Positions 17,346 through 50,220 of a DNA stretch of 64,000 bases are shown here, piece by piece. This DNA is from an archaeon GW2011_AR19 (GTDB lineage Archaea; Nanobdellota; Nanobdellia; Pacearchaeales; GW2011-AR1), in the NCBI GenBank assembly GCA_000806015.1, contig JWKY01000001.1, positions 43,569 through 107,568 on the forward strand, in the 5' to 3' direction. Made by a program: the position numbers and the translations under genes. The stretch's first letter is position 1. The number at the start of each line of letters is the position of its first letter. The notes beneath the pieces were generated by a model. That model saw only the letters and a list, made by a program, of their open reading frames with translations. It was not told where the DNA came from and searched no databases.

Positions 17346-17912
17346 CTATAATCTTTCTTTTGAAGTTACTCTTGTTTCTAAGAAATGCGCTTTTCCTAAA
17401 TTAGACATTTCTGCTAAATCTCTAACGCCCTTTAAGTTAACATCTCGAAGATTGGCATTCCCGAAGTAAGTGCCCTTGAGGTAAGCACTCTGGAGGTTAG
17501 CGCCATCGAGGTTGGCGCCTCTGAAGTTAGCAATCCAGAAGTCAGCATTAACAAGGTAAGCGCTCTTGAAGTTAGTACCCTTGAGGTTGGCATTCCCAAA
17601 GTTAGCATTCTCGAAATTGGCGTTCTCGAAAATAGCATACTCGAGAATAGCCCCTCTGAAGTTAGCATTTCTACCAATTGTGAAAGGTAAATATAATCCT
17701 CTTGCTTTTACATATTGAAGTTGGGAATTACTAATATCGACCGGTTCTTCTTGTAAGTTTTGCGCTTTCAAATACATTTTTAATTCTTGAAATGCACTAT
17801 GCCCACTTAAATCAAATCTTTCTTCAAGAGATATTTTAGAAAAATTTCTTTCTCCACTTAAGAGTTTTACTATGAATTCCTCTCCTGAAACTTTTGTTAA
17901 ACTTTCTGCCAT
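17346..17912 (-). CDS. pentapeptide-repeat protein
   Basis: Tandem A(N/D)LxG/A(N/D)Fxx pentapeptides (ANFRGAILEYAIFENANFENANFGNANLKGTNFKSAYLVNADFWIANFRGANLDGANLQSAYL) after an ~80-aa N-terminal domain. Confidence 0.8.
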   Translation of the reverse strand: MAESLTKVSGEEFIVKLLSGERNFSKISLEERFDLSGHSAFQELKMYLKAQNLQEEPVDISNSQLQYVKARGLYLPFTIGRNANFRGAILEYAIFENANFENANFGNANLKGTNFKSAYLVNADFWIANFRGANLDGANLQSAYLKGTYFGNANLRDVNLKGVRDLAEMSNLGKAHFLETRVTSKERL

Positions 17913-27156: not shown

Positions 27157-29466
27157 ATGGAAATCGGATTTGATAACAGCACCATAAAGGAAGACATAAA
27201 CAACATTGTTAGAGATTTAGGAAATCTTTGTAAAAAGTTTGAAGGCAAAACTATACTTATAACCGGAGGCGCAGGATTTTTAGGAAAATATCTTGTTTGG
27301 TTTTTAATTTTTTTGAATAAAAATATTTTAGAAAGACCGTGTAAAATAATAATTTTGGACAACTTTATTACAGGAATTAAAGGCAGTCTTGAAGAAAATG
27401 AAAATACAATAATTATAGAACAAGATATTTCTAAACCTTTTAAAATAGAAGGAAATATAGATTATATACTGCATGCAGCAAGCATCGCTGCCCCTTTATT
27501 CTATAATAAATACAGATTAGAAACAATTGATGTAGGTTTTATAGGAACAAAGAATCTTTTAGAATTAGCAAAAGAAAAAAAAATTAAAAGTTTTTTATTT
27601 TTTAGCACAAGCGAAATTTACGGAAATCCAGATTCTAAATCTATTCCTACTCCGGAAACATATTTTGGAAATGTTTCATGTACGGGTCCAAGAGCAGCTT
27701 ATGATGAACCAAAGAGAATTGGTGAAACTTTATGCATGACTTATGCAGACATGTACAATCTTCCAATAAAAATAGTCCGCCCCTTTAATGTTTTTGGTCC
27801 TGGAATGAGATTTGATGACGGAAGAGGCGCAATAAACTTTGTTGTTTCCGCATTAAGAGGGGAAAAAATTCCTGTTTATGGCGATGGAAGAAATACAAGA
27901 ACCTGGACATATATTTCAGATGCGATCACAGCATTTTTCCAAGTTCTTTTATCAGATCATAATGGTGAAGCATTTAATGTAGGGTCAGATGAACAAGAAA
28001 TAGAAATGAGGCATCTCGCGCAGCTCGTTGCAGGATTAGTAAAAAATCAAAACATAGAAATTCATAATCTTGAAGGCCCAAATGAAGCTTATTCTAAGGC
28101 TGATGTAAATAGAAGATGTCCTGATTTAACAAAAATTAGAACAATGATTGGATTTATTCCGCGAGTTACTCTTGTTTCTGGATTAAAAAGATTTATAGAA
28201 TGGACAGAAGAAGCATTAAAAGAGCAGCAAAATCTTACGGGTTTTCAATTAAAATGCAGAATTTGTGAAAACCCTGAATTAGAAAAGGTTGTCTCTTTAG
28301 GAAAATCTCCTTTAGCAAATAATCTTCTTTCTATTGGCGATTTAAATAAAGATGAAGAATTATATCCTTTAGAAATAATGCACTGCAGCAAATGTAATTT
28401 ATGCCAGCTTTCATATGTCGTTCCTCCAGAAAAAATGTTCAAAAATTATCTTTATGTTACATCAACAACAGATTATTTTAAAAAACATTTCGGAGAATTG
28501 GCGGATAAAATAAAAAAAGAATTTAACTTAACAAATAATTCATTGGTAGTGGATATAGGGAGTAATGATGGTTTATTATTGAAAAAATTTAAGGAAAATG
28601 GAGTTAGAGTTGTAGGAATTGAATCAGCAGAGAATATTTGTAACCTTGCTAGAAGTGATGGAGTAGATACTTTAAGCGGATTTTTTAATGAGGATATTGT
28701 CGAAGAAATAGTAAAAATGAAAGGAAAAGCAGACGTCGTTACTGCAAATAATGTTTTTGCCCATGTGGGGAATATAAAAGGATTTATAAAAAATGTAAAA
28801 AATTTATTAAAAGATGATGGAATTTTTGTTATAGAAGTACAATATCTTCTTGATATGATACAAACTTTAACGTTTGATAATATCTACCACGAGCATCTCT
28901 CTTATTTCAGCGTTTTATCTTTAAATGAATTTTTCAAAAGACAAGATATGGAAATTTTTAAAGTTGAACATATTGATAGTCATGGAGGATCAATAAGGAT
29001 ATTTATCCAAAAAGCGAAAAAACATTTAAAGGATAACTCTGCAGAAGAATTTATTAGAAAAGAAATGTTTTTTGGTTTAGACAGCTCAAAAACTTATCAA
29101 GAATTTGGAAATAAATTAAACGGAATAAGAGAAAAAATAAGAGATTTTATAATAAAAACTAAAAAAGATGGGAAAAAAATTGTTGGTTATGGCGCGCCGG
29201 CAAAAGCAACAACTCTTCTAAATTATTATGATATAGATAATAAACATCTCGATTTTATTGTTGAAGACAATATTCTAAAACAAGGAAAAATTGTCCCGGG
29301 AGTAAGAATTCCAATTAAAAAAAAGGAAGTTCTTGATCAAATAAATCCAGATTATATTCTTATTTTAGCATGGAATTTTGCAGATGAAATAATGAAAAAA
29401 AATAATATCTATAAAGAGAAAGGCGCAAAGTTTGTCATTATTTCTCCAGAATTAAAAATTGTTTAG
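27157..29466 (+). CDS. fusion protein: N-terminal NDP-sugar epimerase/dehydratase (SDR) + C-terminal sugar C-methyltransferase (TylC3-like)
   Basis: N-terminal ILITGGAGFLGKYLVWFL Rossmann with YDEPK. From ~aa 365 there is a Zn-binding CRICENPELEKVVSLGKSPLANNLL...MHCSKCNLCQLSYVVPPEKMFKNYLYVTS (Methyltransf_13-like). It is followed by the SAM motif VVDIGSNDGLLL and a C-terminal C-methyltransferase domain. Confidence 0.7.
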   Translation: MEIGFDNSTIKEDINNIVRDLGNLCKKFEGKTILITGGAGFLGKYLVWFLIFLNKNILERPCKIIILDNFITGIKGSLEENENTIIIEQDISKPFKIEGNIDYILHAASIAAPLFYNKYRLETIDVGFIGTKNLLELAKEKKIKSFLFFSTSEIYGNPDSKSIPTPETYFGNVSCTGPRAAYDEPKRIGETLCMTYADMYNLPIKIVRPFNVFGPGMRFDDGRGAINFVVSALRGEKIPVYGDGRNTRTWTYISDAITAFFQVLLSDHNGEAFNVGSDEQEIEMRHLAQLVAGLVKNQNIEIHNLEGPNEAYSKADVNRRCPDLTKIRTMIGFIPRVTLVSGLKRFIEWTEEALKEQQNLTGFQLKCRICENPELEKVVSLGKSPLANNLLSIGDLNKDEELYPLEIMHCSKCNLCQLSYVVPPEKMFKNYLYVTSTTDYFKKHFGELADKIKKEFNLTNNSLVVDIGSNDGLLLKKFKENGVRVVGIESAENICNLARSDGVDTLSGFFNEDIVEEIVKMKGKADVVTANNVFAHVGNIKGFIKNVKNLLKDDGIFVIEVQYLLDMIQTLTFDNIYHEHLSYFSVLSLNEFFKRQDMEIFKVEHIDSHGGSIRIFIQKAKKHLKDNSAEEFIRKEMFFGLDSSKTYQEFGNKLNGIREKIRDFIIKTKKDGKKIVGYGAPAKATTLLNYYDIDNKHLDFIVEDNILKQGKIVPGVRIPIKKKEVLDQINPDYILILAWNFADEIMKKNNIYKEKGAKFVIISPELKIV

Positions 29467-30411: not shown

Positions 30412-31434
30412 TTAAAATTTGTTTTTCATGCTAAGATCTTCATTTAAAAACATTCTGCTTTCACCATTTTTAATTCTTTTTCTATATTTCATGCAATAAT
30501 AAAGAGCCTGCCATAAATATTTGGTTTTTAGAAAATTTTCTTTTTTTGGTTTTATTATAACTCTTAGTATGTTCAAAAAATTAATCCAAAATAATTCCCA
30601 GATTAGTTTTAAAGTTCCACCAAGATTGTAAAAATATCTGTAATAAAAATTAAAATGATCTTCATGATTTACAAAAATTCTTTTTTTATCAGGATATCTT
30701 TCAATATCTGAATAATGGTGATATGCTCTCACTCTTTTTGGAATCACCAAACTCCCGTTTCCATACTTAGTATAGACATGATAACCTAAATCAATATCCT
30801 CTGAAACATCATATCCAATTCTTTCTGGAATCTTGTAATTATCAAAAACTTTATCCCTATAACACATTATAAAACCAGATATCCACTGACAATCCCTAAT
30901 ATCTTTTTCAATTTTAGGCGTTGAAGTATTTCCATATGGTCCTAAAATTTTAAATTTATGATTATCTTTATGGGGTAAAAGAAAAAAACCTAAAATAAAA
31001 TTAAGAAGTTTAAATTTTAAAGAATTATATTTTTTGAAATCAAATTTATTGTAATCATTAATATCTACTGCGCCAACACCCATAATTTTTGGATTAGAAT
31101 TAAATTCTTTTAGAACCTCTTTAATAAATCCTTGGATTAATTCGGCATCATCATCTATTAAAATAATTATTTTGAATTTATTTTTAATTTTTATCAAAGC
31201 GTCATTTAATGCATTGTTTTTACTTGGTATTTTGTAATGTTTATATTCTATGAATTTGTTTTTTTTAAGATATATTTGCGCCATATTTTTTGTTTTTTCA
31301 TTTTTGCTTTGATCAAGAATAATAAGTTTTGCTGGATGTTCCTTTTGCAGAATAATGCTTTTTAAAAGCTTTTCTAAATCTTCCGAGCGATTATAAGTTG
31401 GGATAAGGATGCATACATCTTTTTCTTTTAACAT
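30412..31434 (-). CDS. family 2 glycosyltransferase
   Basis: VCILIPTYNRSEDLEKLLKSIILQKEH...IILDQS...IILIDDDAE (GT-A with DxD). Confidence 0.7.
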   Translation of the reverse strand: MLKEKDVCILIPTYNRSEDLEKLLKSIILQKEHPAKLIILDQSKNEKTKNMAQIYLKKNKFIEYKHYKIPSKNNALNDALIKIKNKFKIIILIDDDAELIQGFIKEVLKEFNSNPKIMGVGAVDINDYNKFDFKKYNSLKFKLLNFILGFFLLPHKDNHKFKILGPYGNTSTPKIEKDIRDCQWISGFIMCYRDKVFDNYKIPERIGYDVSEDIDLGYHVYTKYGNGSLVIPKRVRAYHHYSDIERYPDKKRIFVNHEDHFNFYYRYFYNLGGTLKLIWELFWINFLNILRVIIKPKKENFLKTKYLWQALYYCMKYRKRIKNGESRMFLNEDLSMKNKF

Positions 31435-31570: not shown

Positions 31571-33772
31571 TTAAATACAAGCCCCATTTGAACATCCCTT
31601 TGGACAGGTATACCATTCTGAAACTGTAGTCGCATAGGTCACTCCAGATACAACATTAGAAACACAAGAATATTCTGCTAATGAGCCAGTGACGCTACTG
31701 CAGAAGTCCCAATTATCTGCAGAAATAGGAGTAGATGAACCAATTGGACCATAATAACTATTTCCCTTTACATTATAATTTTTTCCTCCATCAGAATCTG
31801 TGCACCAAGTTCCTTGATTAGTTTGATTAGTTGTTGTGTTATTTCCTGTTTGATTTCCAAGAGTTTGGTTATAAGTATAATTTCCCGGTAAAGTAATATT
31901 TGTCTGATTTAAAGTCAAATTCCCAGTTTGATTTCCTGGAAGAGTAAAATTTGTTATATTCAAAATTACGCCGGTCAAATTAGTTTGATTTTTAGGAGGA
32001 AGAGTATAATTAGTTTGATTTCCAAGAAGTCCGGAAATTTCAATTGGTTTAACCTTGACTACCAAAAAATTCCACCAGGGTTTTTCTGAACTGATAATCT
32101 TACCAGTTTCGCTGTCAATTTGCGCTTCTAATTTTAATTTAATTTTAAACAAACCTATTAATCTGCCGTCTTTATCTTCTTTAGCAATATAAACTGCTCT
32201 TAGATTGTCTCCTTCTCCAACTTCTTTTAATTCAATATTAAATCCTTTGCTTTTTAATTTTTCCAATGCTATTTCAGATGCTTCATCTGGCATAATTTTT
32301 ATTTCCCGTTCATTTCCATTAGATAATTGGGCTTTAAGTTTTATTTCGTCGTCTTCAAATTTTTCTAATATTTTTAGCTCAGATTTAATTTCATTTTCAT
32401 TAATTATAATCTTTCTCTCAAGCGTTGCGCTTCCATCTGCTTTAACTTCAGTTTTAATTTCAATTTTAACTTCTTCCCCATTTTTATTTATAAAAGTCCT
32501 TTTTTCTCTAACTACGCTTGAACCATCTTCATTAATTTCTGCATTAATTTTAATCTTAATTTCATTTCCTTTTTTATCTGTAATTTTTTTAACTTCTTCT
32601 ATGAATTTTATATTCTCTTTAATTTCTTCTTTAATGCTGATTGTTTCTTCAAAAACTCCTAATGAAGAACTGCTCCCACTGCTTCCTCCTCCACCTGATA
32701 CTGTTCCTGCAGAAGCAGTTGTTGTGCTTGTTGTAGAAATAGTTGGAATTGTAGTTGTGGTGGATGAAGTTGTTGCATTTGTTTGATTAGTTGTTGTATT
32801 ATTCCTAGTTTGATTTGTTGTAGTTGAAACGCAAGCCCCATCAGAACATCCATTTGGACAAGTATAAATTTCAGCATCTGGTCCGCAAAAAAGTTCTACT
32901 ACAGCTGTTCCATCGCCATTGCAATAGTCTGAATAAGTGTAAGAACCATAAGTCCTAGCTCCTTTTACATTATAGTTTTTTCCCCCGTCGCTGTCTGTGC
33001 ATGTTGTTTGATTTGTCGTCGTAGTTGAAACACAGGCGCCATTAGAGCATCCATTTGGACAAGAATAATATTCTGAAGATATTCCATTAACAATAGCAAA
33101 GCCGTTAACAATGCAAAAATATTCTGCTACACTTTGACCATTGCAGTAATCTACATGATTTGGAGAATTTGAAGAGATAGTATTTCCTTTTATATAATAA
33201 TCCTTTCCCCCGTCGCTATCAGAACAAGAAATTCCTGTTTGATTAGTTGTATTTGTTGCAGCAGAAACACAAGCCCCATTTGAGCATCCGTTTGGACAAG
33301 TGTAAGTTTCTCCGCTTTGTTGTTTATCAGCAGTGCAGAAATATTCTACTAATGAATTTGAGCTGCTGCACAAATCTGTAACATCTATAGAAGATGTTGG
33401 CGAATTCGCAACAACATTTCCTTTAGTTGAATATGCTTTTCCTCCGTCGCTATCTGCGCAAGTAAAGGTGTTTGAAACACAAGCGCCAGCAACACAAGTT
33501 TCACCTGATGAGCAGGAGATTACAGAACTAAACTCTAAACAAGAATCAGAATCATAATTCCCGCAAGTTTTATAGCCGTCGCCAGAACATTGTTTTGCCC
33601 CGTTAGACGAGCAATCATCAGAACAGGTCAGATTTGTTGTATCATTTTCAGTAGTTTTTCCAGTTAATTTTTTCCAAAAATCTCCAAACCATGTTGCAGA
33701 CACAAATCCTATTGACATAATTAAAGTAATTAATATTAAAGAAATTAAAACAATTACTAAACTCTTTTTCAT
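31571..33772 (-). CDS. secreted modular surface protein: signal peptide, four Cys-rich ~65-aa modules, Thr-rich linker, beta-rich K/E repeats, dense N-glycosylation sequon cassette
   Basis: N-terminal MKKSLVIVLISLILITLIMSIGFVSA is a signal peptide. Four modules follow the pattern C.DSDGGK.Y..KG...C...E(Y/L).C...Y(T/S)CP(N/K)GCS(N/D)GAC. A TTTNQT...SGGGGSSGSSSS linker is present. About 16 N-x-T sequons lie in aa 583-655 (nt 31808..32026). Confidence 0.7.
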   Translation of the reverse strand: MKKSLVIVLISLILITLIMSIGFVSATWFGDFWKKLTGKTTENDTTNLTCSDDCSSNGAKQCSGDGYKTCGNYDSDSCLEFSSVISCSSGETCVAGACVSNTFTCADSDGGKAYSTKGNVVANSPTSSIDVTDLCSSSNSLVEYFCTADKQQSGETYTCPNGCSNGACVSAATNTTNQTGISCSDSDGGKDYYIKGNTISSNSPNHVDYCNGQSVAEYFCIVNGFAIVNGISSEYYSCPNGCSNGACVSTTTTNQTTCTDSDGGKNYNVKGARTYGSYTYSDYCNGDGTAVVELFCGPDAEIYTCPNGCSDGACVSTTTNQTRNNTTTNQTNATTSSTTTTIPTISTTSTTTASAGTVSGGGGSSGSSSSLGVFEETISIKEEIKENIKFIEEVKKITDKKGNEIKIKINAEINEDGSSVVREKRTFINKNGEEVKIEIKTEVKADGSATLERKIIINENEIKSELKILEKFEDDEIKLKAQLSNGNEREIKIMPDEASEIALEKLKSKGFNIELKEVGEGDNLRAVYIAKEDKDGRLIGLFKIKLKLEAQIDSETGKIISSEKPWWNFLVVKVKPIEISGLLGNQTNYTLPPKNQTNLTGVILNITNFTLPGNQTGNLTLNQTNITLPGNYTYNQTLGNQTGNNTTTNQTNQGTWCTDSDGGKNYNVKGNSYYGPIGSSTPISADNWDFCSSVTGSLAEYSCVSNVVSGVTYATTVSEWYTCPKGCSNGACI

Positions 33773-33866: not shown

Positions 33867-35072
33867 ATGAAAATACTTGAAGTATGCCCATATTCAGCAG
33901 GCATTTGCGGAGTTTGGACAAGAGTTTTGGAAGAATCTAAAAGATTAAGTAAACGGGGTTTTGAAATAAAAATTTTTTCTTCAAATGCTGTTAAAGGTTC
34001 AAATGAAATTGCTCCTTCACACGAAAAATTAGGCCCCAAAGGGGTCTCCTCTGGAGTAAAAATAGAAATTTTAAGATTTCCTTTTAAAAAATTAGGCGGT
34101 GAAAGTTTTATGTCTTGGGATTTTGAAAAAGAAGCGTTGAATTATTCGCCAGACATCATAATTGCTCACAATTATAGACATTTGCATACAACAAAATGTC
34201 TTAAAATTGCAGAAAAATTAAAAGGAGAAAACAAAAAATGCAAAGTTTTTCTTGTAACTCATGCTCCCTTTGAAAGAAAATTAACAAGAACTTTTTTGCA
34301 AAACTTAATTGTTAAAATTTATGATTTATTTATTGGAAGAAAAACAATTAATAAGTTTGATAAAATTTTGGCAATAACCAAATGGGAGATGCCTTATTTG
34401 CTAAAATTAGGAGCAAAAAAAGAAAAAATTATTTATATTCCTAATGGCATTTCTCCTGAATTTTTTAGTCTGAAAAAGCAAGCAAAAAAAGAACAAAAAA
34501 CAGGAAATTTTTTGACAAACTCGCCCAAGCGTGGTCGAGTTAAAGAAGAAAATAAGATATTATTTTTAGGCCGTATTTCTCCGATTAAAAATTTGGAAGT
34601 ATTAATTAAAGCAATGGATTTCGTTAAAAACAAGAAGATTTTATTGGAGATTGTGGGCCCCCCAGAAAAAAATTATTTTATAAAATTAAAAAATTTAATT
34701 AAAAAACTTGGACTAAATGATAAAATAAAATTTTCTTTACCAATCTATAATCTAAAAGAAAAGATAGCTAAAATAGATTCTTGCCAAATATTTGTCTTGC
34801 CAAGTAAAATGGAAGGCATGCCCCAATCTTTAATAGAAGTAATGGCAAGAGAAAAAATTGTAATTGGAAGCAATAGCTTGGCAATAAGGGATTTAATCGA
34901 GAATGGAGAAAATGGATTTTTATTTGAATTTAATGACCCAAAAGATTTAGCAAAAAAAATTGATGAAGCGCTTTCACAAAAAAATTTAGAAATAAAAAAA
35001 CAGGCAAGAAAAAGTGTTGAACATTTTTCCTGGAACAAAGTAATTAAAAAAATAGTGGGAGTTATACAATGA
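33867..35072 (+). CDS. family 4 (GT-B) glycosyltransferase
   Basis: C-terminal EX7E region EGMPQSLIEVMAREKIVIGSN...NGENGFLF. Confidence 0.75.
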   Translation: MKILEVCPYSAGICGVWTRVLEESKRLSKRGFEIKIFSSNAVKGSNEIAPSHEKLGPKGVSSGVKIEILRFPFKKLGGESFMSWDFEKEALNYSPDIIIAHNYRHLHTTKCLKIAEKLKGENKKCKVFLVTHAPFERKLTRTFLQNLIVKIYDLFIGRKTINKFDKILAITKWEMPYLLKLGAKKEKIIYIPNGISPEFFSLKKQAKKEQKTGNFLTNSPKRGRVKEENKILFLGRISPIKNLEVLIKAMDFVKNKKILLEIVGPPEKNYFIKLKNLIKKLGLNDKIKFSLPIYNLKEKIAKIDSCQIFVLPSKMEGMPQSLIEVMAREKIVIGSNSLAIRDLIENGENGFLFEFNDPKDLAKKIDEALSQKNLEIKKQARKSVEHFSWNKVIKKIVGVIQ

Positions 35073-36955
35073 AAATTCTAATAATTAAAACGGGTGCTTT
35101 AGGAGATGTCTTAAGAACAAGTTTTTTAGCTCAGGCTTTAAAAGATAAATATAAAAAAACAAATTCAAAAATATTTTGGTTAACTTCGCAACAATCTTCG
35201 CAATTTTTTATTAATAATCCATATATAAATGAGCTGATTATTTCAGGAGAAAGAGATAATTTAAAAAAAATAAAATTTGATTTAGTTATAAATTTAGAGG
35301 AATCCAAAGAGGATGCCAGATTTACTTCTTTATTAAAACCAAAAAAAATAATTGGTGTTTTTTTAAATAAAAACGGAGAAATAGAATATACTCAAGAGAC
35401 TTCTTATTGGTTTGATATGTCTATGATAAGCAGATTAGGAAAAGAAAAAGCAGATATTTTAAAAAATAAAAATAAAAAAACTCATCGACAGATTATGTCA
35501 GAAATTATTGGAATGGATTGGAGAAAATATGAACCTTTTTTAAGATTAACAGACGCTCAAAGAAAAATGGCGCAAGAATTTTCAAACAAACATCATCTTT
35601 CAAAAAGTGATTTAATAATTGGAATCAACACGGGCGCTGCAGACAGATGGCCTAAAGAACTTTCAATAAAAAAAACTATTGAGATAATTGAAAATCTTTA
35701 TAAAAAGTATAATACAAAAATTTTGCTATTTGGGGGGCCAAATGAGATTAAAAGAAACAAAGAGATTATTAAATTAGCAGAATCTCCAATAATAGATACT
35801 GGTTGCGGAAATAATCTCGTTGAATTTCCAGCGTTAGTAAGTGTTTGCAATATAGTTATAACGACTGATAGTTTGGGGCTGCATGTTGCTTTGGCATTAA
35901 AAAGAAAAACAATTTGTTTAATCGGTCCGACATCTTCTTCGGAAATAGATTTGTATAATTTAGGAGAAAAAATAATAGCCAAATCAAAAGATGTTTGTTC
36001 TTATAAAACAGAAACAGATTGCATGGATAAAATAGATTTAAATGAAATTAAAACAGCAATAGATAAAATTTTAAAACAAAAAATAACTTTGCTGATAACT
36101 GCATTTAAAGAGCCAAAGACAATTATAAAAGCGGTTGAAGGCGCTTTGGCCCAAAAAACATCAAGGAAATATGAAATTGTTGTTTCTGCTCCAGATAATG
36201 AAACTTTAGATGCAATAAAAAAGCATAAAAATTTAAAAATTTTTAAAGATCCTGGAAAAGGAAAAAGTTACGCATTAAATTTAATTTTTGAAAAATTAAA
36301 AACAGATATTTTGATTTTGACGGACGGGGATGTTTTTATTTCGGATAATGTTGTTGAAAACTTTGCAAATTTATTTTTAGATTCAGAAATTGGATGCGCA
36401 ACCGGGAGACCTATTCCTATAGAGAACAAAAAAACCAAATATGGTTTTTGGGCAAATTTTTTATTTGACTCTGCTCACAGATTAAGGAAGAAAGCATTTC
36501 AGCAAAATAAATTTTTAGAGTGTTCAGGATATCTATTTGCTTTTAGAAAAGAATTTATCCGTAAAATTCCTTTAGATGTGGCTGAAGATACTCTTATTCC
36601 ATATTTATTTTGGCAAAAAGGATATAAAATTGGTTATTCTGAAAATTCACGAGTTTATGTTAAAAATGTTGATAATTTTAGAGATTGGATTAACCAAAAG
36701 ATTAGAACTTCTAAGGCGCATGAAACTTTATATAAATATGTTGATATTAAAACAACTCCGAGGATAAAAACTTTTAAAACAGAAGCAAAAGGATTTTTTT
36801 CTCTTTTTAGCTACCCTGAAAATTTCCAGCAATTTTGGTGGTCAAGTTTGCTCGCTTTATCAAGATTTTATATGTGGATGAAAGTTTTTTATGACACAAA
36901 ATTTAAGAAAAAACATTATCAAGATGCTTGGAAGAGAGTTGAAAGCGCGAAATAA
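35069..36955 (+). CDS. fusion protein: N-terminal GT9 heptosyltransferase-like domain + C-terminal GT2 domain
   Basis: The N-terminus MKILIIKTGALGDVLRTSFLAQALKDKYKK...IFWLT matches the RfaC/RfaF (GT9) signature MKILIIR..LGDV..T.P...LK. From ~aa 330, ITLLITAFKEPKTIIKAVEGALAQ...ILILTDGDVFIS is a GT-A (GT2) domain. Confidence 0.6.
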   Translation: MKILIIKTGALGDVLRTSFLAQALKDKYKKTNSKIFWLTSQQSSQFFINNPYINELIISGERDNLKKIKFDLVINLEESKEDARFTSLLKPKKIIGVFLNKNGEIEYTQETSYWFDMSMISRLGKEKADILKNKNKKTHRQIMSEIIGMDWRKYEPFLRLTDAQRKMAQEFSNKHHLSKSDLIIGINTGAADRWPKELSIKKTIEIIENLYKKYNTKILLFGGPNEIKRNKEIIKLAESPIIDTGCGNNLVEFPALVSVCNIVITTDSLGLHVALALKRKTICLIGPTSSSEIDLYNLGEKIIAKSKDVCSYKTETDCMDKIDLNEIKTAIDKILKQKITLLITAFKEPKTIIKAVEGALAQKTSRKYEIVVSAPDNETLDAIKKHKNLKIFKDPGKGKSYALNLIFEKLKTDILILTDGDVFISDNVVENFANLFLDSEIGCATGRPIPIENKKTKYGFWANFLFDSAHRLRKKAFQQNKFLECSGYLFAFRKEFIRKIPLDVAEDTLIPYLFWQKGYKIGYSENSRVYVKNVDNFRDWINQKIRTSKAHETLYKYVDIKTTPRIKTFKTEAKGFFSLFSYPENFQQFWWSSLLALSRFYMWMKVFYDTKFKKKHYQDAWKRVESAK

Positions 36956-43491: not shown

Positions 43492-44417
43492 TATCTCGTT
43501 AGCCTCATTTTCCAGCCTTCTTTGGTTGAAATATTTCTTTTAAATTTACTTTTAATTGAGCCTATTAAAAATGCTAAATTTAATAATGAAAATCCAAGAA
43601 ATTCTTTTAAACTCATATTGGGTATTTTTCTTATAATATAAAAAAAGAATTTCGGCGATAAAATTTTTACTGGTCTTTTTATAGCCTTTAATTGGTTTCT
43701 GGCTAATGCTGTTCTTTCTTTTATTTTTATTAATTCCTTAAATTTATAAGTTTCACCTGCAGTAATCATTCTTGGCAACTTTTGGTTTGTTGTTGCAACA
43801 ATTTCTAAACCAGAATTTACTATGTCATAAAATCTCTCAAAATCATCTCCCAATGTTTGGTTTTGTTTGTATAGCTTTTTTCTAAAGATATTCACAATTA
43901 GCGGTGAAAAATTTTTATCTGCAATTGTCCATAAATCATTTATTTTTTTTCCATGTTCTTTTATATAATCAATCCAAATTTGATTTTGTATCATTACCCC
44001 TATTTCAAGAATTCCTGCTTCTTTTCTTGCAGGATATTGCACTGAGAACGAATCCGCAATGCACCCCACTTTAGGATTATTGAAAATATCTAATAATTGT
44101 TTTAATGAATCCTTATCTTTAACTCTAAATATCCAATCTGCATCATTAATAATCATAATTTCACCTTTTGCTTTTTTTATTATTTTGTTTATAACTGCCG
44201 GCTTGCCTTCTCTTATATTCAGATTATAATGTCTTATTTTTTTAGATTTTTTTTCAAAAGATTTTACTATCTCTTCAGTCTTGTCTGTACAGCCGTCTAA
44301 CCCTATAATTACTTCATAATTTTTATATGGCAGAGAAATAAGATTTTTCAAATTTTTGGATATTATTTTTTCTTCATTATGGACTGCCATTAAAAATGAA
44401 ACCTTTATTTCTTTCAT
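43491..44417 (-). CDS. family 2 glycosyltransferase
   Basis: VSFLMAVHNEEKIISKNLKNLISLPYKNYEVIIGLDGCTDKT. Confidence 0.7.
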   Translation of the reverse strand: MKEIKVSFLMAVHNEEKIISKNLKNLISLPYKNYEVIIGLDGCTDKTEEIVKSFEKKSKKIRHYNLNIREGKPAVINKIIKKAKGEIMIINDADWIFRVKDKDSLKQLLDIFNNPKVGCIADSFSVQYPARKEAGILEIGVMIQNQIWIDYIKEHGKKINDLWTIADKNFSPLIVNIFRKKLYKQNQTLGDDFERFYDIVNSGLEIVATTNQKLPRMITAGETYKFKELIKIKERTALARNQLKAIKRPVKILSPKFFFYIIRKIPNMSLKEFLGFSLLNLAFLIGSIKSKFKRNISTKEGWKMRLTR

Positions 44418-45211
44418 CTATTCAATCTCCTTCTTGTTCTAAGTGAGGCATTTACACTCCAATCATAAAACTTTATTAAACTTTTGAAAGGAGAACTTAA
44501 AATTCTTAATCTCACTATAGCTAATAACATTACTGGTCCCGATTTAGCAAAATTTACTTTAGAATATTCTTTGTCACTCCAAGAAGTAGAGATTTCTTTA
44601 ATTTTAAATCCAAGTCTTTTCATATTATAAAGAACCTCTACATCAAAAGCGAGTTGCGAAAAAGTTAATTTTGGAATTGTTTTTTCCAAGGTTTTTCGTT
44701 TAAAAAGTTTGGCTCCGCATTGAGTATCTTTAAATTGCAATCCTAAGATAATCCTTATCATAAAATTAAAAATTCTTGAAGCAAAAATTCTTTCAAAAGT
44801 GGGTTTTGGAGCAATGATTGAGTCTTTAACATATCTGCTTGCAATTATCCCGTCGTAATTATTAATTTTTTTAACCAGCTCATAAAAAGTTTCAGGCGAA
44901 GTAGCCATATCAGCGTCCTTAAATCCAATTAAATTGCTATTTCCTTTTAGCGCTTCTTTAAAACCCTCAATAACTGCATAACCTTTAGCTCCTCTTTTTA
45001 AATTTAAATATTTTAATTCTTTGTTTTTTTTAGCGAGCTCTTTTACAATTTCAAGAGTCTTATCAGTTGAACCATTTACAACTGCAATTATTTCAAAATC
45101 TAAAATTTTATTTTTTTTAATGGCTTTAAAAAATTTTAAATTTGAATCAAGAGTTTCTTTAATTCGTTTCTCTTCATTATAAGCGGGGATAATTATGCTG
45201 ATTTTTTCCAT
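44414..45211 (-). CDS. dolichyl-phosphate hexose synthase-like GT2 (DPM1/AglD/AglJ-like)
   Basis: ISIIIPAYNEEKRIKETL...IIAVVNGSTDKT...FKDADMATSP...DTQCGAKLFKRK...FDVEVL matches the Dpm1 pattern. 265 aa. Confidence 0.7.
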   Translation of the reverse strand: MEKISIIIPAYNEEKRIKETLDSNLKFFKAIKKNKILDFEIIAVVNGSTDKTLEIVKELAKKNKELKYLNLKRGAKGYAVIEGFKEALKGNSNLIGFKDADMATSPETFYELVKKINNYDGIIASRYVKDSIIAPKPTFERIFASRIFNFMIRIILGLQFKDTQCGAKLFKRKTLEKTIPKLTFSQLAFDVEVLYNMKRLGFKIKEISTSWSDKEYSKVNFAKSGPVMLLAIVRLRILSSPFKSLIKFYDWSVNASLRTRRRLNR

Positions 45212-46440
45212 TTTCTAACAAAAATAAAAGCCCCTATAAAGGTTATTATAGTAGAGAACATAAATGCAAGAGTAAATTGTTTAATGTCTGCATTAAATAA
45301 AAATAGCAAAATTATCTCTATAACTAAAAAGAGGATAATTAATAATAAATGGGGTAAATTAAATTCGTCTGTTGAGATTCTATATAATATAAGAATATTT
45401 AGAAAAGCTATCAAGCTAAACGCGATTCCAAGATATGGCAATAATTCTGCTATTTCTAAATACTGGCTGCCAAATAATAATTTTATTGTCAGTTCTGGAA
45501 GAATAATAAAAAGAGCGACAGCAGCGGCGCATAATATAAAAACATACAGCGAGGCTTTTTTAATGATTCCGCTTGTTTTGGCTTTTGCATAATGTCTTTC
45601 AGCGCTTATAGGAAACATCGCATTTCCAATAGACATTGTAGAAAATAAAATCATTTTTCCTATTGTTGAAAGCACTGCATACTGGCCTGCAATTTCACTT
45701 GAAAAAAACACCCTTGCTAAAATTACATCAATGCTGTAAATAAAAACAAAAACTAAAATTGAACCAAAAATCAAGCTATTTTCTTTAGTTAAAATTTTTG
45801 TCCCATCATTATCTCTTTTAGCGTTTATTATTTCCTTTATATACGGCAAAGCAAGAATAAAACCAAAAACCATTCCTAAAATAAAACCTAAAATAGCTCC
45901 ATAAACTTTAAATCCAAAAATTACAAGAATTATTGCAACTACAATTTTTATAAAAAAAACTAAAAGAGTGTTCCAGCCAAGAGCTGAGAATTTTTTCATT
46001 CCCTGCAAAGAGCCCGCAGCAAGAGGGTAAACAAATGAGGCAATTATTAAAGTTCCTGTTAAAACTAAAAGCCAAAAAGAAATATTAAGGGGTTTTATAA
46101 TAAAAAAAGACAAGATTACAAAAAGAATAAAAACAATAAGCGAGAAAATAAATAATTTTTTTAAAAAACTAAAAAACAAGCCACCCATTTTATTGTATTC
46201 TTTTGTTGCATTGAATATTGCAATTTTTTTTGATACAGCAGTTTGTATCGCTAATGTCGGAATTGTAAAAATATATGTAAAACTTATTAAAACAGCAAGA
46301 ATTCCATAGTCTGAAGGCCCAAGCATTCTCGCCATAATAATTTGATAAAGATAATTAATTAGATTTCCAATATTAATTAAAACAAAAAGAATTAAACTTC
46401 CTCTAAAAAGTTCATTTTTCTTAATTTTTTCAAAAATCAT
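45193..46440 (-). CDS. Wzx/AglR-type oligosaccharide flippase (polysaccharide biosynthesis protein family)
   Basis: 415 aa with about 12 TM helices. Its position is between the OST and the lipid-linked GT genes. Confidence 0.65.
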   Translation of the reverse strand: MIFEKIKKNELFRGSLILFVLINIGNLINYLYQIIMARMLGPSDYGILAVLISFTYIFTIPTLAIQTAVSKKIAIFNATKEYNKMGGLFFSFLKKLFIFSLIVFILFVILSFFIIKPLNISFWLLVLTGTLIIASFVYPLAAGSLQGMKKFSALGWNTLLVFFIKIVVAIILVIFGFKVYGAILGFILGMVFGFILALPYIKEIINAKRDNDGTKILTKENSLIFGSILVFVFIYSIDVILARVFFSSEIAGQYAVLSTIGKMILFSTMSIGNAMFPISAERHYAKAKTSGIIKKASLYVFILCAAAVALFIILPELTIKLLFGSQYLEIAELLPYLGIAFSLIAFLNILILYRISTDEFNLPHLLLIILFLVIEIILLFLFNADIKQFTLAFMFSTIITFIGAFIFVRKWKKSA

Positions 46441-46441
46441 T

Positions 46442-49195
46442 TTACAATTCCCAACTTAAATATTTTGAAGAATCTCTGTCAAGGTATTCTTGTTTTTTTT
46501 CCTCGTTTCCAGTATATTTAATTTCCCAGATTTTTATAGGCCCCTGAATTCCCTGATAATAAACAAATTCATTTAAATTTACACCTTGTTTTTTTAGCTC
46601 GCTGACTATTAAATTATCTTCTGAATGAACTAATTTAAAGTTTAAGAATTTGTTAAAAGGATCATTTAATAAATATTTTTGGGCAAAATATCCCCTCATA
46701 ACCCGAGGAGAAATATAAATCATGCTTCCAAAATCATCCATCTTGACCTGTCCGTTAACAACCTCTATTTTTTGAATTATCTTTATAGTCCCTTCTAATC
46801 CGCTTCCAAAATCAACAAATTTATTATTATATTCTAAATATCTTAAAGGAAGATTATATTGCTGGCCATTATAAACAAAAACTCCTGTTGGCTGAATAAA
46901 ACTCAGGCTTTCATTATTTTGAGAACTCTGGAGGATTACCCCCCCGATTCCTGCTGCTCCAGACGGCAGGAAAATTTCTGAATTATTTAAATTGTAAATT
47001 ATATCTTCATCTAATCCAACTCCCCCGCTATAAACTCTCATCATTCCAGAACTTGTTTCTCTGCTTTGGCTTTTGTCGAAATGAATTGTTGGAATAAAAG
47101 ATAATCGATCATAATTCTCGCTGCTGCCAATGCTTGAAAACGCCCCGTATTTTCCAATATCTGAAGAATCTATTAATAAATAATTTGCATCATGGCTATA
47201 TAAAAATTCTAAAGCATCTTTTTGATTATCGCCAGTCAAGACTAATCTTCCAGTTAAGTAATTCCACCAGACAACCATGTTTCCACCGTCTGTAACTGTC
47301 GCTCTCTCTCCTATTGATTGAAGCCAGTAACCATAATCCCACCAGTGCGCAAAAACACTATTTTGAGGGGTTTCATCTCTGACCCATTTCATTGCTTTTT
47401 GCCATTGTTGATTATAAGCAGATGGAACAGCATTATATGCCTGGGATTTAATTTCTTTATAATATGAAATAAATATAAATATTGTCAAGACAATTAAAAT
47501 TATTGCAATAATTCCTAAAAATAATCTTTTTTCTTCTTTTGAATTTTTAAATGAGAAAATTGACTGGTCAATTAAATATCCAACGAATATTGGAACAATT
47601 GGTCCGAGAATCATAACTAATCTTACAGCACTTCTGGCGCTGAATAATGCAAGAACTAATAAAGACAACAAAAGCAGAGAGCTATATTCTATTTTTTCAA
47701 AACCTTTGTGTTTTTCTTTTTGATATTTAACATAATAATAAATAAAAAATCCGACTAAAAGAGCAATTGATAAAAGAAAAAAAGTTTTGCTTATGAAATT
47801 TTCTCCATTAAACATGCTTGAGGGAGAATATCTTGAAAACATTAATCCAGATAAAAATAAAACAAATAAACCAGTTAGTATCCATGAATCTTTTTTCTTA
47901 ATTTCATTTAACATTTTTTTAAAGAAAACTATTGAGCCAATAAAAAATAACCAGAACATTATTGGAATCGCTTTAATGAATGGTCCGAAACTTCCAACCC
48001 ATTCAGTAAAATAAGGCTGTTTATTTTCTGCAACTGTCTGATTCCATCTTCCTGTTACAGGTTTAAAAAGAGTATTGTTAATCTGTTTTATTTTGTCGGA
48101 TAGCATTGAAGGATTTATAATAAGAGCGATTATTAAAAGCGCTAAAACCAGAACCAAAATTGAAATTATATTTTTTGGAAGATTTATTTTCTTTAAAAAT
48201 TTATTTTCAGAAATTTTTGTATTCCATAGTAGAAGGTGCAAAAATAATAGCATTAGTAAAATAAATGTGGCACTGTTTATCAAGGAAGATGAAATAAAAC
48301 TAACATGGCCTTTTCCAGGAAGAAGAGATAAAAACAATCTTGCAGAAATCCACCATGAAGAATAAACAATTATTTCTTTCTTTTTAAATTTGTTTAAAAT
48401 AAATGCAGTAAAACTCGCGGCAAAAGTTGCCCAATATAAATAAGCAGATAATCCAGATACTAATGCCATACCTGCAGTCGCAGCTCCTGCTAAAATTCCG
48501 TAAATTAAAGCATGTTTTATTTTTTCAGATTTCCAGGCTTTTAAAAATAAAAATAACGCAAGAAATAAAAAGAAAAACATTGCAGATTCTTTTTCTGGAA
48601 TGCCTGCAACTGTCCTTGATAATAAAATTGGAATTACAATCATTAAAAATGTAGAAATTAAAGAAATTATGTTTGCGCGAATTTTGCTTAATTTAGACTC
48701 TCTTGCAAAAAGTTCTCTTACAAATAAGAAAAAAACGATTATTGTCAGCGCAAAAATGATTACAGGAAATAGCGCTGCTCCAAATTCAACATTCGCCTGC
48801 GGATAAAAAATCTTTGAGAGTTTGTAAGCCAAGGCAACCATATACGGGAGCAAAACTGTTTCTTCTGATGTTTTAAATCCAAGAGGAACATTTCTCATTG
48901 TGTCTATCTCTGGAATTGACCCTTCATTTACAATTAATTTTGCCATTCTTGTAAATAGCCAGGGATCTAAATCAGGTCCGAGCGTCCAAGTATTTGTTGC
49001 AACATCCCAAAGTCCGGGATTTCCGCCATGATCTGACATAGGCAAACTTCTAATATATATTCCAAGAATTAAAGCAATTATTAAGAGACCAATCACCCAA
49101 ACTTCCGGCTTTTTAAGAAAATTTATTATTTTGTCTTTTCTTATTTTAATTAATTCATCTTCGCTATTTGATTTATTTTCGGCTAAACTTTCCAT
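46442..49195 (-). CDS. aglB: oligosaccharyltransferase AglB (STT3 family)
   Basis: 917 aa with about 13 N-terminal TM helices plus a C-terminal soluble domain. The hallmark WWDYGYW motif is at aa 618-624 (nt 47324..47344). An acidic first-loop motif is present (GPDLDPW). Confidence 0.9.
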   Translation of the reverse strand: MESLAENKSNSEDELIKIRKDKIINFLKKPEVWVIGLLIIALILGIYIRSLPMSDHGGNPGLWDVATNTWTLGPDLDPWLFTRMAKLIVNEGSIPEIDTMRNVPLGFKTSEETVLLPYMVALAYKLSKIFYPQANVEFGAALFPVIIFALTIIVFFLFVRELFARESKLSKIRANIISLISTFLMIVIPILLSRTVAGIPEKESAMFFFLFLALFLFLKAWKSEKIKHALIYGILAGAATAGMALVSGLSAYLYWATFAASFTAFILNKFKKKEIIVYSSWWISARLFLSLLPGKGHVSFISSSLINSATFILLMLLFLHLLLWNTKISENKFLKKINLPKNIISILVLVLALLIIALIINPSMLSDKIKQINNTLFKPVTGRWNQTVAENKQPYFTEWVGSFGPFIKAIPIMFWLFFIGSIVFFKKMLNEIKKKDSWILTGLFVLFLSGLMFSRYSPSSMFNGENFISKTFFLLSIALLVGFFIYYYVKYQKEKHKGFEKIEYSSLLLLSLLVLALFSARSAVRLVMILGPIVPIFVGYLIDQSIFSFKNSKEEKRLFLGIIAIILIVLTIFIFISYYKEIKSQAYNAVPSAYNQQWQKAMKWVRDETPQNSVFAHWWDYGYWLQSIGERATVTDGGNMVVWWNYLTGRLVLTGDNQKDALEFLYSHDANYLLIDSSDIGKYGAFSSIGSSENYDRLSFIPTIHFDKSQSRETSSGMMRVYSGGVGLDEDIIYNLNNSEIFLPSGAAGIGGVILQSSQNNESLSFIQPTGVFVYNGQQYNLPLRYLEYNNKFVDFGSGLEGTIKIIQKIEVVNGQVKMDDFGSMIYISPRVMRGYFAQKYLLNDPFNKFLNFKLVHSEDNLIVSELKKQGVNLNEFVYYQGIQGPIKIWEIKYTGNEEKKQEYLDRDSSKYLSWEL

Positions 49196-49230
49196 TTTTA
49201 GATTAGAATAATTTTATATTTAAAGCTTTG

Positions 49231-50220
49231 TTATACCATGAAAATCCAAAATCCGAGCAAGATAATCATTATCTGAAATCCATTAATTAAATAGACGACA
49301 TCTGTTTCATAAACTTTTTTTGACGGCTTTATTTTTTTCAAAAGTTTTATTGCTAAATGTTCCAATCCATATATTTTCTCATAAGGCATCTCCAAACTTC
49401 TATCTTTATTTAGCTTTGCAAAACTTTCTTTTCTAAGCCATCCTCTTAATTTTAAAATTGTTTCAAGGATATATGGAATAAAAAAGAATAATGCGATTTT
49501 TTCAATGTTTCCGAGGATGGCAATTACTGCAATCAGCGCTCCAACAGGATAAGTTAAAGTATCTCCGGGAAATATTTTTGCAGGATATTTGTTAAATATG
49601 TAAAAAGCGATTAAAGCCGCAACCATACATAATGCAATTATGCTTAACCAGGAATTTCCAGTTAAAAAAGTTACAATAGACAGTGCAGATAAAATTAAAA
49701 TTCCCTGACTTGCTTCTAATCCGTTGTATCCAGCTAAAAAATTAAAAGTTGTTGATGCTCCTACAATTCCTATTGGAATTAAAAATAATGGATATACTAA
49801 TCCAAAATCTATTCCAAATAGAATGGATTCTCCGGCATTTATTACCATCAGAGGGATAGCAGCAAAAAGCATCATCACAATCCTCATTGATTTGCTTAAG
49901 CCCTTTTTCCAGCCCAATAAATCATCTATTGAACCAAGCATAGTGGCAATAAATAAAGTTGTTAAAATTGCAAATATAGAAGATAAAAATTCACTTCTTT
50001 TAAAATAAAAAGTATTTATTGCAATATATAATAATACACCGATTGAAAATCCAAACATGACGCTGACTCCACCGCCTTCTGCAATCTTTTTTTTATCTTG
50101 TTTATGCATATCTTTTCCAACTAAATTCTCTTGATTGGCTTTTCTTATCCAAAAGGGAATTATAAAAAGAGCGCAGAAAAAACTAATTAATATTGTTGCT
50201 AATAATAATATTTCCACCAT
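49231..50220 (-). CDS. aglH: dolichyl-phosphate HexNAc-1-phosphate transferase (GPT/Alg7/AglH, MraY-WecA superfamily)
   Basis: DMHKQDKKKIAEGGG (D..K....P..GG). NFLAGYNGLEA matches the eukaryotic/archaeal GPT NAINILAGINGLE. IDDLLG and PGDTLTY motifs. 10 TM helices. Confidence 0.8.
   Translation of the reverse strand: MVEILLLATILISFFCALFIIPFWIRKANQENLVGKDMHKQDKKKIAEGGGVSVMFGFSIGVLLYIAINTFYFKRSEFLSSIFAILTTLFIATMLGSIDDLLGWKKGLSKSMRIVMMLFAAIPLMVINAGESILFGIDFGLVYPLFLIPIGIVGASTTFNFLAGYNGLEASQGILILSALSIVTFLTGNSWLSIIALCMVAALIAFYIFNKYPAKIFPGDTLTYPVGALIAVIAILGNIEKIALFFFIPYILETILKLRGWLRKESFAKLNKDRSLEMPYEKIYGLEHLAIKLLKKIKPSKKVYETDVVYLINGFQIMIILLGFWIFMV

Follow-up and report, generated by a model that had tools for sequence, protein, structure and literature searches.

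The 64,000-nt window analyzed here (contig JWKY01000001.1 of the archaeon GW2011_AR19, positions 43,569 to 107,568 of the forward strand) carries on its reverse strand, at 31571–33772, a gene for a 733-amino-acid (AA) protein. In it, a first-pass annotation made from the letters alone had noticed four copies of an apparently undescribed Cys-rich module. We show that this six-Cys module is not peculiar to the window gene but belongs to a very large family of DPANN (Diapherotrites, Parvarchaeota, Aenigmarchaeota, Nanoarchaeota, Nanohaloarchaeota) archaea and candidate phyla radiation (CPR) bacteria, and that it is a very widespread domain family without annotation in the libraries searched (Pfam-A and NCBIfam). 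We consider it probable that the window protein is a Sec-exported modular surface glycoprotein, in which the six-Cys module serves as a disulfide- and Ca2+-stabilized bead of surface or adhesion proteins.

Alignment of the four copies revealed 24 invariant columns, which include six Cys, the stretch D-S-D-G-G-K, a Tyr, K-G, D-x-C, a Glu and the terminal C-P-x-G-C-S-x-G-A-C. The six cysteines, the DSDGGK motif and the CP(N/K)GCS(N/D)GAC frame noticed at first are common to all four copies, which share 41–54% pairwise protein identity and measure 62–80 AA in the window protein. A family hidden Markov model (HMM) was built from an alignment (A2) of 107 diverse copies, 103 rows of which come from other proteins, and it recovered all four modules at the positions claimed for them with independent E-values (i-E) of 6e-22 to 7e-17. 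The consensus of the module reads C-x-D-[ST]-D-x-G ... G ... D-x-C ... E-[YF]-[YF]-C ... C-P-x-G-C-x-x-G-x-C. Among 1,265 unique copies the six Cys are 100% conserved, followed by D31 in module numbering (99%), D8 and E41 (97% each), G63 (96%) and D6, G10 and G17 (91% each); Ser or Thr occupies position 7 in 87% and Asn or Asp position 12 in 78% of these copies, and other positions are variable. The length of the module ranges from 61 to 103 AA, with loops of strands 2–3 and 4–5 that differ in length. An even number of Cys (6, 8, 10 or 4) was counted in 382 of 393 copies, extra Cys being gained in pairs. The complete conservation of the cysteines and the pairing of the additional ones support the earlier proposal that the domain would be stabilized by disulfides.

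When the A2 profile was run against 1.84 billion cluster representatives, 13,557 proteins were matched at E ≤ 1e-3, 5,804 at E ≤ 1e-10 and 1,157 at E ≤ 1e-30, with up to 26 matched stretches in one protein (3,760 AA). Already 113 of the first 120 homologues contained 447 copies, many of them back to back. To see which taxa carry the module, a single genome of each species was covered by a motif-seeded scan, which gave 174 confirmed places and in which taxa were counted among the best 79 loci; because the scan was seeded with the four window modules, the taxon list is biased to copies with the exact DSDGGK and CPNGCS motifs. DPANN archaea form the majority of the best 79 of the 174 loci (25 Woesearchaeota, 8 Nanoarchaeota/Nanoarchaeia, 5 Pacearchaeota, 4 Aenigmatarchaeota, 2 Micrarchaeota, 1 Iainarchaeum and 1 Nanohalarchaeota); 10 are labeled only ‘archaeon’, 11 are labeled CPR/Patescibacteria and a few come from other bacteria. 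On three CPR-labeled contigs the module genes are flanked by genes for SecA, type I GAPDH and RpiB; for GrpE; and for an NlpC/P60 peptidoglycan endopeptidase, and these bacterial neighbors argue that the bacterial assignments are more than binning noise. An N-terminal hydrophobic segment is present in 219 of the 243 complete family proteins (approximately 90%), a C-terminal one in only 6. The domains that accompany the module are all extracellular (CARDB, LamG-like, S-layer C-terminal, dockerin, PEGA, PKD, sialidase, transglutaminase-like and DsbA/thioredoxin); CARDB, PKD and dockerin sit elsewhere in the family proteins, not on the six-Cys module. The database names of the family proteins are ‘hypothetical protein’ or derive from other domains.

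AlphaFold2 prediction of module 1 with the A2 alignment gave a confident all-β fold of five strands followed by a short C-terminal hairpin (predicted local distance difference test score, pLDDT, 97.8; predicted template modeling score 0.82). As judged from this model, the module is a real, autonomously folding domain. Profile searches with single modules, suggested at the outset as a check, assigned it to no existing family in Pfam-A, NCBIfam or the PDB sequences. In the 2025 copy of Pfam-A no families were found for any of the four window modules at E ≤ 10, and singly scanned at E ≤ 1 the 107 diverse copies gave a chance scatter with nothing significant or consistent: Nab2-zf4 appeared in 6 of the 107 at E ≥ 0.043, the rest being isolated matches at E ≥ 0.005. 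Neither the whole protein nor two of the modules matched any NCBIfam family at E ≤ 10, and the best E-value in a profile search of PDB sequences was 0.73. No Pfam or NCBIfam model of PKD, cohesin/dockerin or PGF-pre-PGF domains matched the window protein, in agreement with the judgment made by eye. A solved fold was to be called at Foldseek E ≤ 1e-3 or a template modeling (TM) score ≥ 0.5 to a solved chain; the best Foldseek E-values of the pLDDT-97.8 model were 1.3 in the PDB and 0.68 in BFVD, and no solved fold was called. Cyanovirin-N was considered as a fold relative and rejected (probability 0.2, TM 0.35, root-mean-square deviation ~15 Å). In the open literature, searches by motif and by topic likewise gave no description of the six-Cys module. 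The supposition that it was undescribed is thus borne out for Pfam-A, NCBIfam, PDB, BFVD and the open-access literature searched. Cys-rich extracellular repeats are a familiar kind of domain, to which the module adds a new family, and the surprise is moderate, not exceptional.

The window gene and its parts, in the order of the protein, are as follows.

31571–33772 (− strand): whole gene (open reading frame, ORF; stop codon 31571–31573), for a 733-AA putatively secreted or N-anchored modular glycoprotein
33695–33772 (− strand): predicted signal peptide or N-terminal anchor, AA 1–26, consisting of MKK, a 21-residue hydrophobic core and VSA, with a presumed cleavage
33650–33691 (− strand): conserved motif WFGDFWKKLTGKTT, AA 28–41, directly after the signal-like segment (A3 alignment)
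33476–33628 (− strand): ‘type B’ eight-Cys module, AA 49–99, located by HMM
33263–33469 (− strand): six-Cys module copy 1, AA 102–170 (i-E 6e-22), kept in all orthologues
33026–33235 (− strand): six-Cys module copy 2, AA 180–249 (i-E 2e-20)
32825–33010 (− strand): six-Cys module copy 3, AA 255–316, the shortest with 62 AA (i-E 3e-19)
32657–32824 (− strand): Thr/Ser/Asn/Gly-rich mucin-like linker, AA 317–372, with five N-x-T sequons (AlphaFold2 pLDDT < 50)
32303–32656 (− strand): Lys/Glu-rich β-hairpin repeats, AA 373–490, modeled by AlphaFold2 as long regular hairpins (pLDDT 60–80)
32063–32302 (− strand): PepSY-like α+β domain, AA 491–570, ending in KPWWNFLV (weak Pfam assignment)
31814–32020 (− strand): N-glycosylation sequon cassette, AA 585–653, with 16 N-x-T sequons in 69 AA
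31574–31813 (− strand): C-terminal six-Cys module copy 4, AA 654–733 (80 AA, long loops; i-E 7e-17)

The coordinates given by the first-pass annotation, 31574–33460, run from the last codon back to codon 105, whose first base is 33460 and which encodes the first Cys of module 1. The layout it described, with three modules before the Thr/Ser/Asn-rich linker and the fourth after the sequon cassette, is the one seen in the sequence map. The extracellular location it proposed agrees with the signal-like segment at the N-terminus of this protein and of 219 family proteins: the maximal 15-AA hydropathy is 3.35 within the first 50 AA vs. 1.59 in the remaining protein, and S25 and A26 of the segment are invariant among orthologues (A3 alignment). 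PepSY (PF03413) matched the window protein with 12.3 bits (E = 0.21), below the gathering score of 24 bits, and one orthologue with 5e-5; the α+β pattern of this region is predicted by AlphaFold2 at moderate confidence, and the region is the best-conserved stretch of A3. For the β-hairpin repeats, the Foldseek similarity to the single-layer β-sheet of Borrelia OspA was weak and non-significant. The full-length AlphaFold2 model reached a mean pLDDT of 50.9 and served solely to read the secondary structure of the middle part; the matches of this model in Foldseek to a DUF1849 barrel and to OspA were non-significant and were set aside. Antisense to the gene lies a 193-AA ORF (32205–32786, + strand), a low-complexity shadow ORF that is almost certainly no gene.

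The segment at AA 49–99 had been described as a Cys-rich leader. The Cys-rich segment is real and has eight Cys, but it is no leader peptide: judged from its sequence, it is a second, separate unannotated repeat family, which we call type B. Its consensus is SCTDECSSSGQKQCSGNGYQTCGNYDSDSCLEWSSVTSCSSGETCSNGACV with the core CGNYDSDSCLEW, and it spans approximately 51 AA. Of 252 proteins collected, 38 contain type B by HMM, with 105 copies in all and up to 17 in tandem in a Myxococcota protein, and exactly eight Cys were present in 89 of 91 copies. No significant match to Pfam or the PDB was obtained for it, apart from a faint EGF_integrin match at E 0.045–0.05. In two orthologues, P0004 and P0007, type B recurs after the PepSY-like domain. 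The part that it has in common with the six-Cys module is the C-terminal CxxGxxCxxGxC hairpin only (hhalign probability 67%, 17 columns); as these last 17 columns alone align, the segment was rejected as a degenerate six-Cys copy. Between the signal-like segment and type B lies the post-signal motif, in which D31 (protein numbering), T37 and G38 are invariant in A3. A similar motif, [WF]FxD..xK[IL]TG[KRN][AV], follows the signal segment in 52 of the 243 module proteins from many lineages, the background being 1.8% per 80-AA window. The motif could serve to sort or anchor the surface proteins of DPANN archaea.

Comparison with orthologues bears both on the reality of the repeat array and on its mobility. 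Besides a 99% identical protein (P0001, from a Joint Genome Institute (JGI) assembly), we found orthologues at 45–77% identity. Those from other genomes share the architecture, and further modules vary in number, with 1–3 on the N-terminal side and 0–1 at the C-terminus. Metagenome assemblies carry a general risk of collapsed or mis-joined tandem repeats, and the first-pass annotation had named such an artefact as a danger for its four copies. This explanation is refuted by the divergence of the copies (their DNA identity of 63–82% is confined to short motif-coding stretches), by the exact 733-AA product on 10 independently assembled groundwater contigs (separate assemblies and runs of project PRJNA268031), by the JGI variant and by the layout of the orthologues. 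Module 1 is 83–93% identical to module 1 of the orthologues. Copy 3 is absent from most of them, and the best orthologue match of copy 2 is only 54% identical, which points to a variable cassette. Copy 4 shares 94% identity with the second N-terminal module (AA 181–261) of P0002, the 77%-identical orthologue, in which a module of the module-1 type occupies the C-terminus; such identity at different positions indicates that cassettes change their place in the gene from one close strain to another. All 10 AA differences between the window protein and P0001 fall within AA 47–151 (33320–33634, − strand), that is, in type B and module 1, and 6 of them at AA 137–151, in the loops around strand 4 of module 1, and the remaining 582 residues are identical. 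The clustering suggests a recombination tract or local diversification.

The window protein contains 26 N-x-S/T sequons vs. 14.7 ± 3.2 expected, and all 26 lie in linkers, with none inside any Cys module. Around the gene we located the following features of a glycosylation region.

30412–31434 (− strand): GT2 glycosyltransferase, downstream of the gene (Pfam); the same neighbor is seen at other loci
33867–36955 (+ strand): divergent GT4/GT1 glycosyltransferase and a GT9-GT2 fusion (Pfam)
45193–50220 (− strand): flippase-like protein, AglB/STT3 oligosaccharyltransferase (46442–49195) and GT4-family AglH-like transferase (Pfam)

From their sequences, the flippase-like, AglB/STT3 and AglH-like genes are recognized as the core of an N-glycosylation island. 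Island neighbors are retained beside orthologues of 62% and 45% protein identity in other genomes. The pair of GT4/GT1 and GT9-GT2 genes also adjoins orthologue P0004, and on the P0003 contig a GT1/GT4 gene is adjacent, with GT2 and GT9 as separate genes a few kb off. The excess of sequons in the linkers, the glycosylation island and the kept synteny are best read as the sign of a cell-surface N-glycoprotein, dedicated or major.

The island for N-glycosylation and sugar modification extends over approximately 12200–50300 and includes a carbamoyltransferase, two B12-binding radical SAM enzymes and many GT2 genes. Further genes within it encode PMT_2, DegT aminotransferases, epimerases, C-methyltransferases/methyltransferases, RmlC/RmlD and sugar-nucleotide enzymes. 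The 628-AA fusion of a GT9 (heptosyltransferase-like) and a GT2 domain (35069–36955, + strand) is conserved as a fusion beside P0004. A 769-AA product (27157–29466, + strand) joins an NAD-dependent sugar epimerase/dehydratase to a zinc-binding C-methyltransferase (Methyltransf_13/23/14), and the same fusion adjoins a Pacearchaeota orthologue. A pentapeptide-repeat protein of 188 AA (17346–17912, − strand) lies among the sugar-modification genes. An Rfam scan of the window, made for taxonomic markers, returned no matches.

In the explanation that we favor, a groundwater DPANN (Pacearchaeota-like) archaeon would export the gene product through Sec as a surface glycoprotein built from mobile parts: one type B module, three six-Cys modules, the mucin-like linker, the β-hairpin/PepSY-like core, the sequon cassette and a fourth six-Cys module. 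Three disulfides would lock each six-Cys module, since the paired extra Cys and the export signals speak for disulfides and against a metal cluster. A structural Ca2+ site in a small extracellular domain is classically betrayed by four near-invariant carboxylates, LDL-receptor class A (LDL-A) and calcium-binding EGF (cbEGF) domains being textbook cases, and by this analogy D6, D8, D31 and E41 of the module may hold Ca2+. The result would be a rigid, degradation-resistant bead, 1–26 of which in tandem could hold out or display the other parts of surface proteins, and the length-variable loops could give binding surfaces for cell-cell or cell-substrate attachment. The modules themselves would stay glycan-free, with the linkers between them bearing the sequons served by the adjacent AglB-centered island. 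From conservation, architecture and context we infer a stalk or adhesion role for the module. Three points weigh against this explanation. The D-[ST]-D-x-G loop is off the canonical spacing of EF-hand or DxDxDG loops, which concerns its Ca2+ part. The hydropathy scan found no second hydrophobic segment and no C-terminal anchor in the window protein, so that attachment to the cell is left unexplained. Finally, a mere spacer and a binding domain would fit the sequence equally well.

Among known domains, LDL-A (PF00057) is probably the best analogy for how the six-Cys module holds its shape, being likewise small and extracellular, with six invariant Cys, tandem arrays and a conserved Asp/Glu cluster; in LDL-A the Cys form three disulfides and the cluster cages Ca2+. 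It differs in having ~40 AA and little regular structure, vs. the 61–103 AA, five strands and hairpin of the module, and in its Cys spacing; PF00057 matched none of the 107 copies, and the C-x...-C-D-G-x-x-D-C-x-D-x-S-D-E signature is absent from the module consensus. EGF and cbEGF domains share with the module the six Cys, a C-terminal hairpin of C-x-x-G-x-C type and tandem extracellular use, cbEGF also having an N-terminal acidic motif. However, they comprise ~40 AA with a C1–C3, C2–C4, C5–C6 pattern, whereas the module is ~25 residues longer with an extra β-sheet, and at E ≤ 1 none of the 107 modules matched an EGF family, if single weak matches of an unrelated kind are set aside. For thrombospondin type 3 (TSP type 3) repeats there was no TSP_3 match in Pfam, and the module departs from their D-x-D-x-D-G-x-x-D spacing: in its consensus D-[ST]-D-[GN]-G-x-[ND], Gly (91%) takes the place of Asp as the third member of the canonical triad. 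The Ig-like stalk domains CARDB, PKD and Big have the same apparent role as beads on a string in exported DPANN/CPR proteins, and CARDB and PKD co-occur with the module, but they are 80–100-AA β-sandwiches without obligatory disulfides, to which the module has no sequence or fold match. The Myxococcus cysteine-rich repeat (DUF4215, PF13948; TIGR02232) is also a Cys-rich repeat of exported proteins and shares proteins P0011 and P0074 with the module; in both it occupies other segments, and no six-Cys module matches PF13948. The Peritrophin-A/CBM14 chitin-binding domain resembles the module in its ~65 AA, six Cys, β-rich structure and extracellular use, yet it is eukaryotic, has another Cys pattern and no acidic cluster, and the module has no Pfam or structural match to it.

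The main rival explanation is a Ca2+-dependent carbohydrate-binding (lectin- or CBM-like) domain whose main job would be glycan recognition on a host or substrate. The conserved acidic cluster together with semi-conserved aromatics (Y13, Y14, Y42, Y43 and Y54) would suit such a function, as would the company of LamG/ConA-like, sialidase-lectin and CARDB domains in surface proteins, the enrichment of episymbiotic DPANN and CPR lineages among its carriers, and the variable-length loops, in which module 1 collects six of the ten differences from its 99% variant. We nevertheless find it unlikely: no sequence or structure match to any CBM or lectin was obtained (CBM_14 in none of the 107 copies, Cyanovirin-N as noise only), the aromatics lie in predicted strands and may be core residues, and up to 26 tandem copies are more typical of stalks. 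The invariance of the six Cys would equally be expected if they ligated a metal (Zn or Fe-S) in place of forming disulfides, and the carriers come from anoxic groundwater, where extracellular disulfide formation is less obvious. Such a metal-cluster domain is very improbable, given the export signals in the window protein and in 90% of the family, the lack of CxxC pairs and of a conserved His, a Cys spacing that varies by tens of residues, the 97% of Cys counts that are even, a family member with fused DsbA/thioredoxin domains, and the fact that AlphaFold2 folds the module at pLDDT 97.8 without metal.

We also weighed whether the module is a divergent member of the EGF/cbEGF, LDL-A, TSP type 3, Kazal, CBM14 or Myxococcus Cys-rich repeat families that the HMMs missed. 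Its tail, C-P-x-G-C-S-x-G-x-C, resembles an EGF-type disulfide hairpin, and ‘CPNGCS’ is present in tenascin EGF repeats; the faint EGF_integrin match of type B points the same way, and six Cys with an acidic cluster recall LDL-A and cbEGF, as known from textbooks. On the other hand, not one of the 107 copies was significant for any named Pfam family at E ≤ 1, ~67 AA with five regular strands stand against the 40-AA EGF and LDL-A modules, and Foldseek found nothing in a PDB rich in EGF, LDL-A and Kazal structures. A missed relationship of this kind is accordingly improbable, if somewhat less so than the metal cluster. A bolder reading would see the six-Cys and type B modules as founding a large, so far unrecognized extracellular superfamily with its own fold, a hallmark common to DPANN and CPR as the two radiations of ultrasmall episymbionts and exchanged between domains of life; it would form a variable, Ca2+-dependent host-attachment surface, at which the cassette shuffling between close strains would reflect an arms race. 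We regard this reading as doubtful.

DPANN archaea and CPR bacteria represent a large share of microbial diversity, and most of them are thought to live attached to other cells. To our knowledge, their surface-building proteins are almost entirely ‘hypothetical’. Spread over more than 13,000 protein clusters yet lacking an entry in Pfam and NCBIfam, the six-Cys domain is an obvious annotation gap. The location of the gene in an AglB-centered island nominates the window protein as a natural substrate for the study of DPANN N-glycosylation, and the six-Cys module, type B and the post-signal motif offer small, expressible targets for structure determination, for Ca2+ and disulfide biochemistry and for work on host binding. 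Naming the six-Cys module would mark thousands of proteins as exported surface proteins at once.

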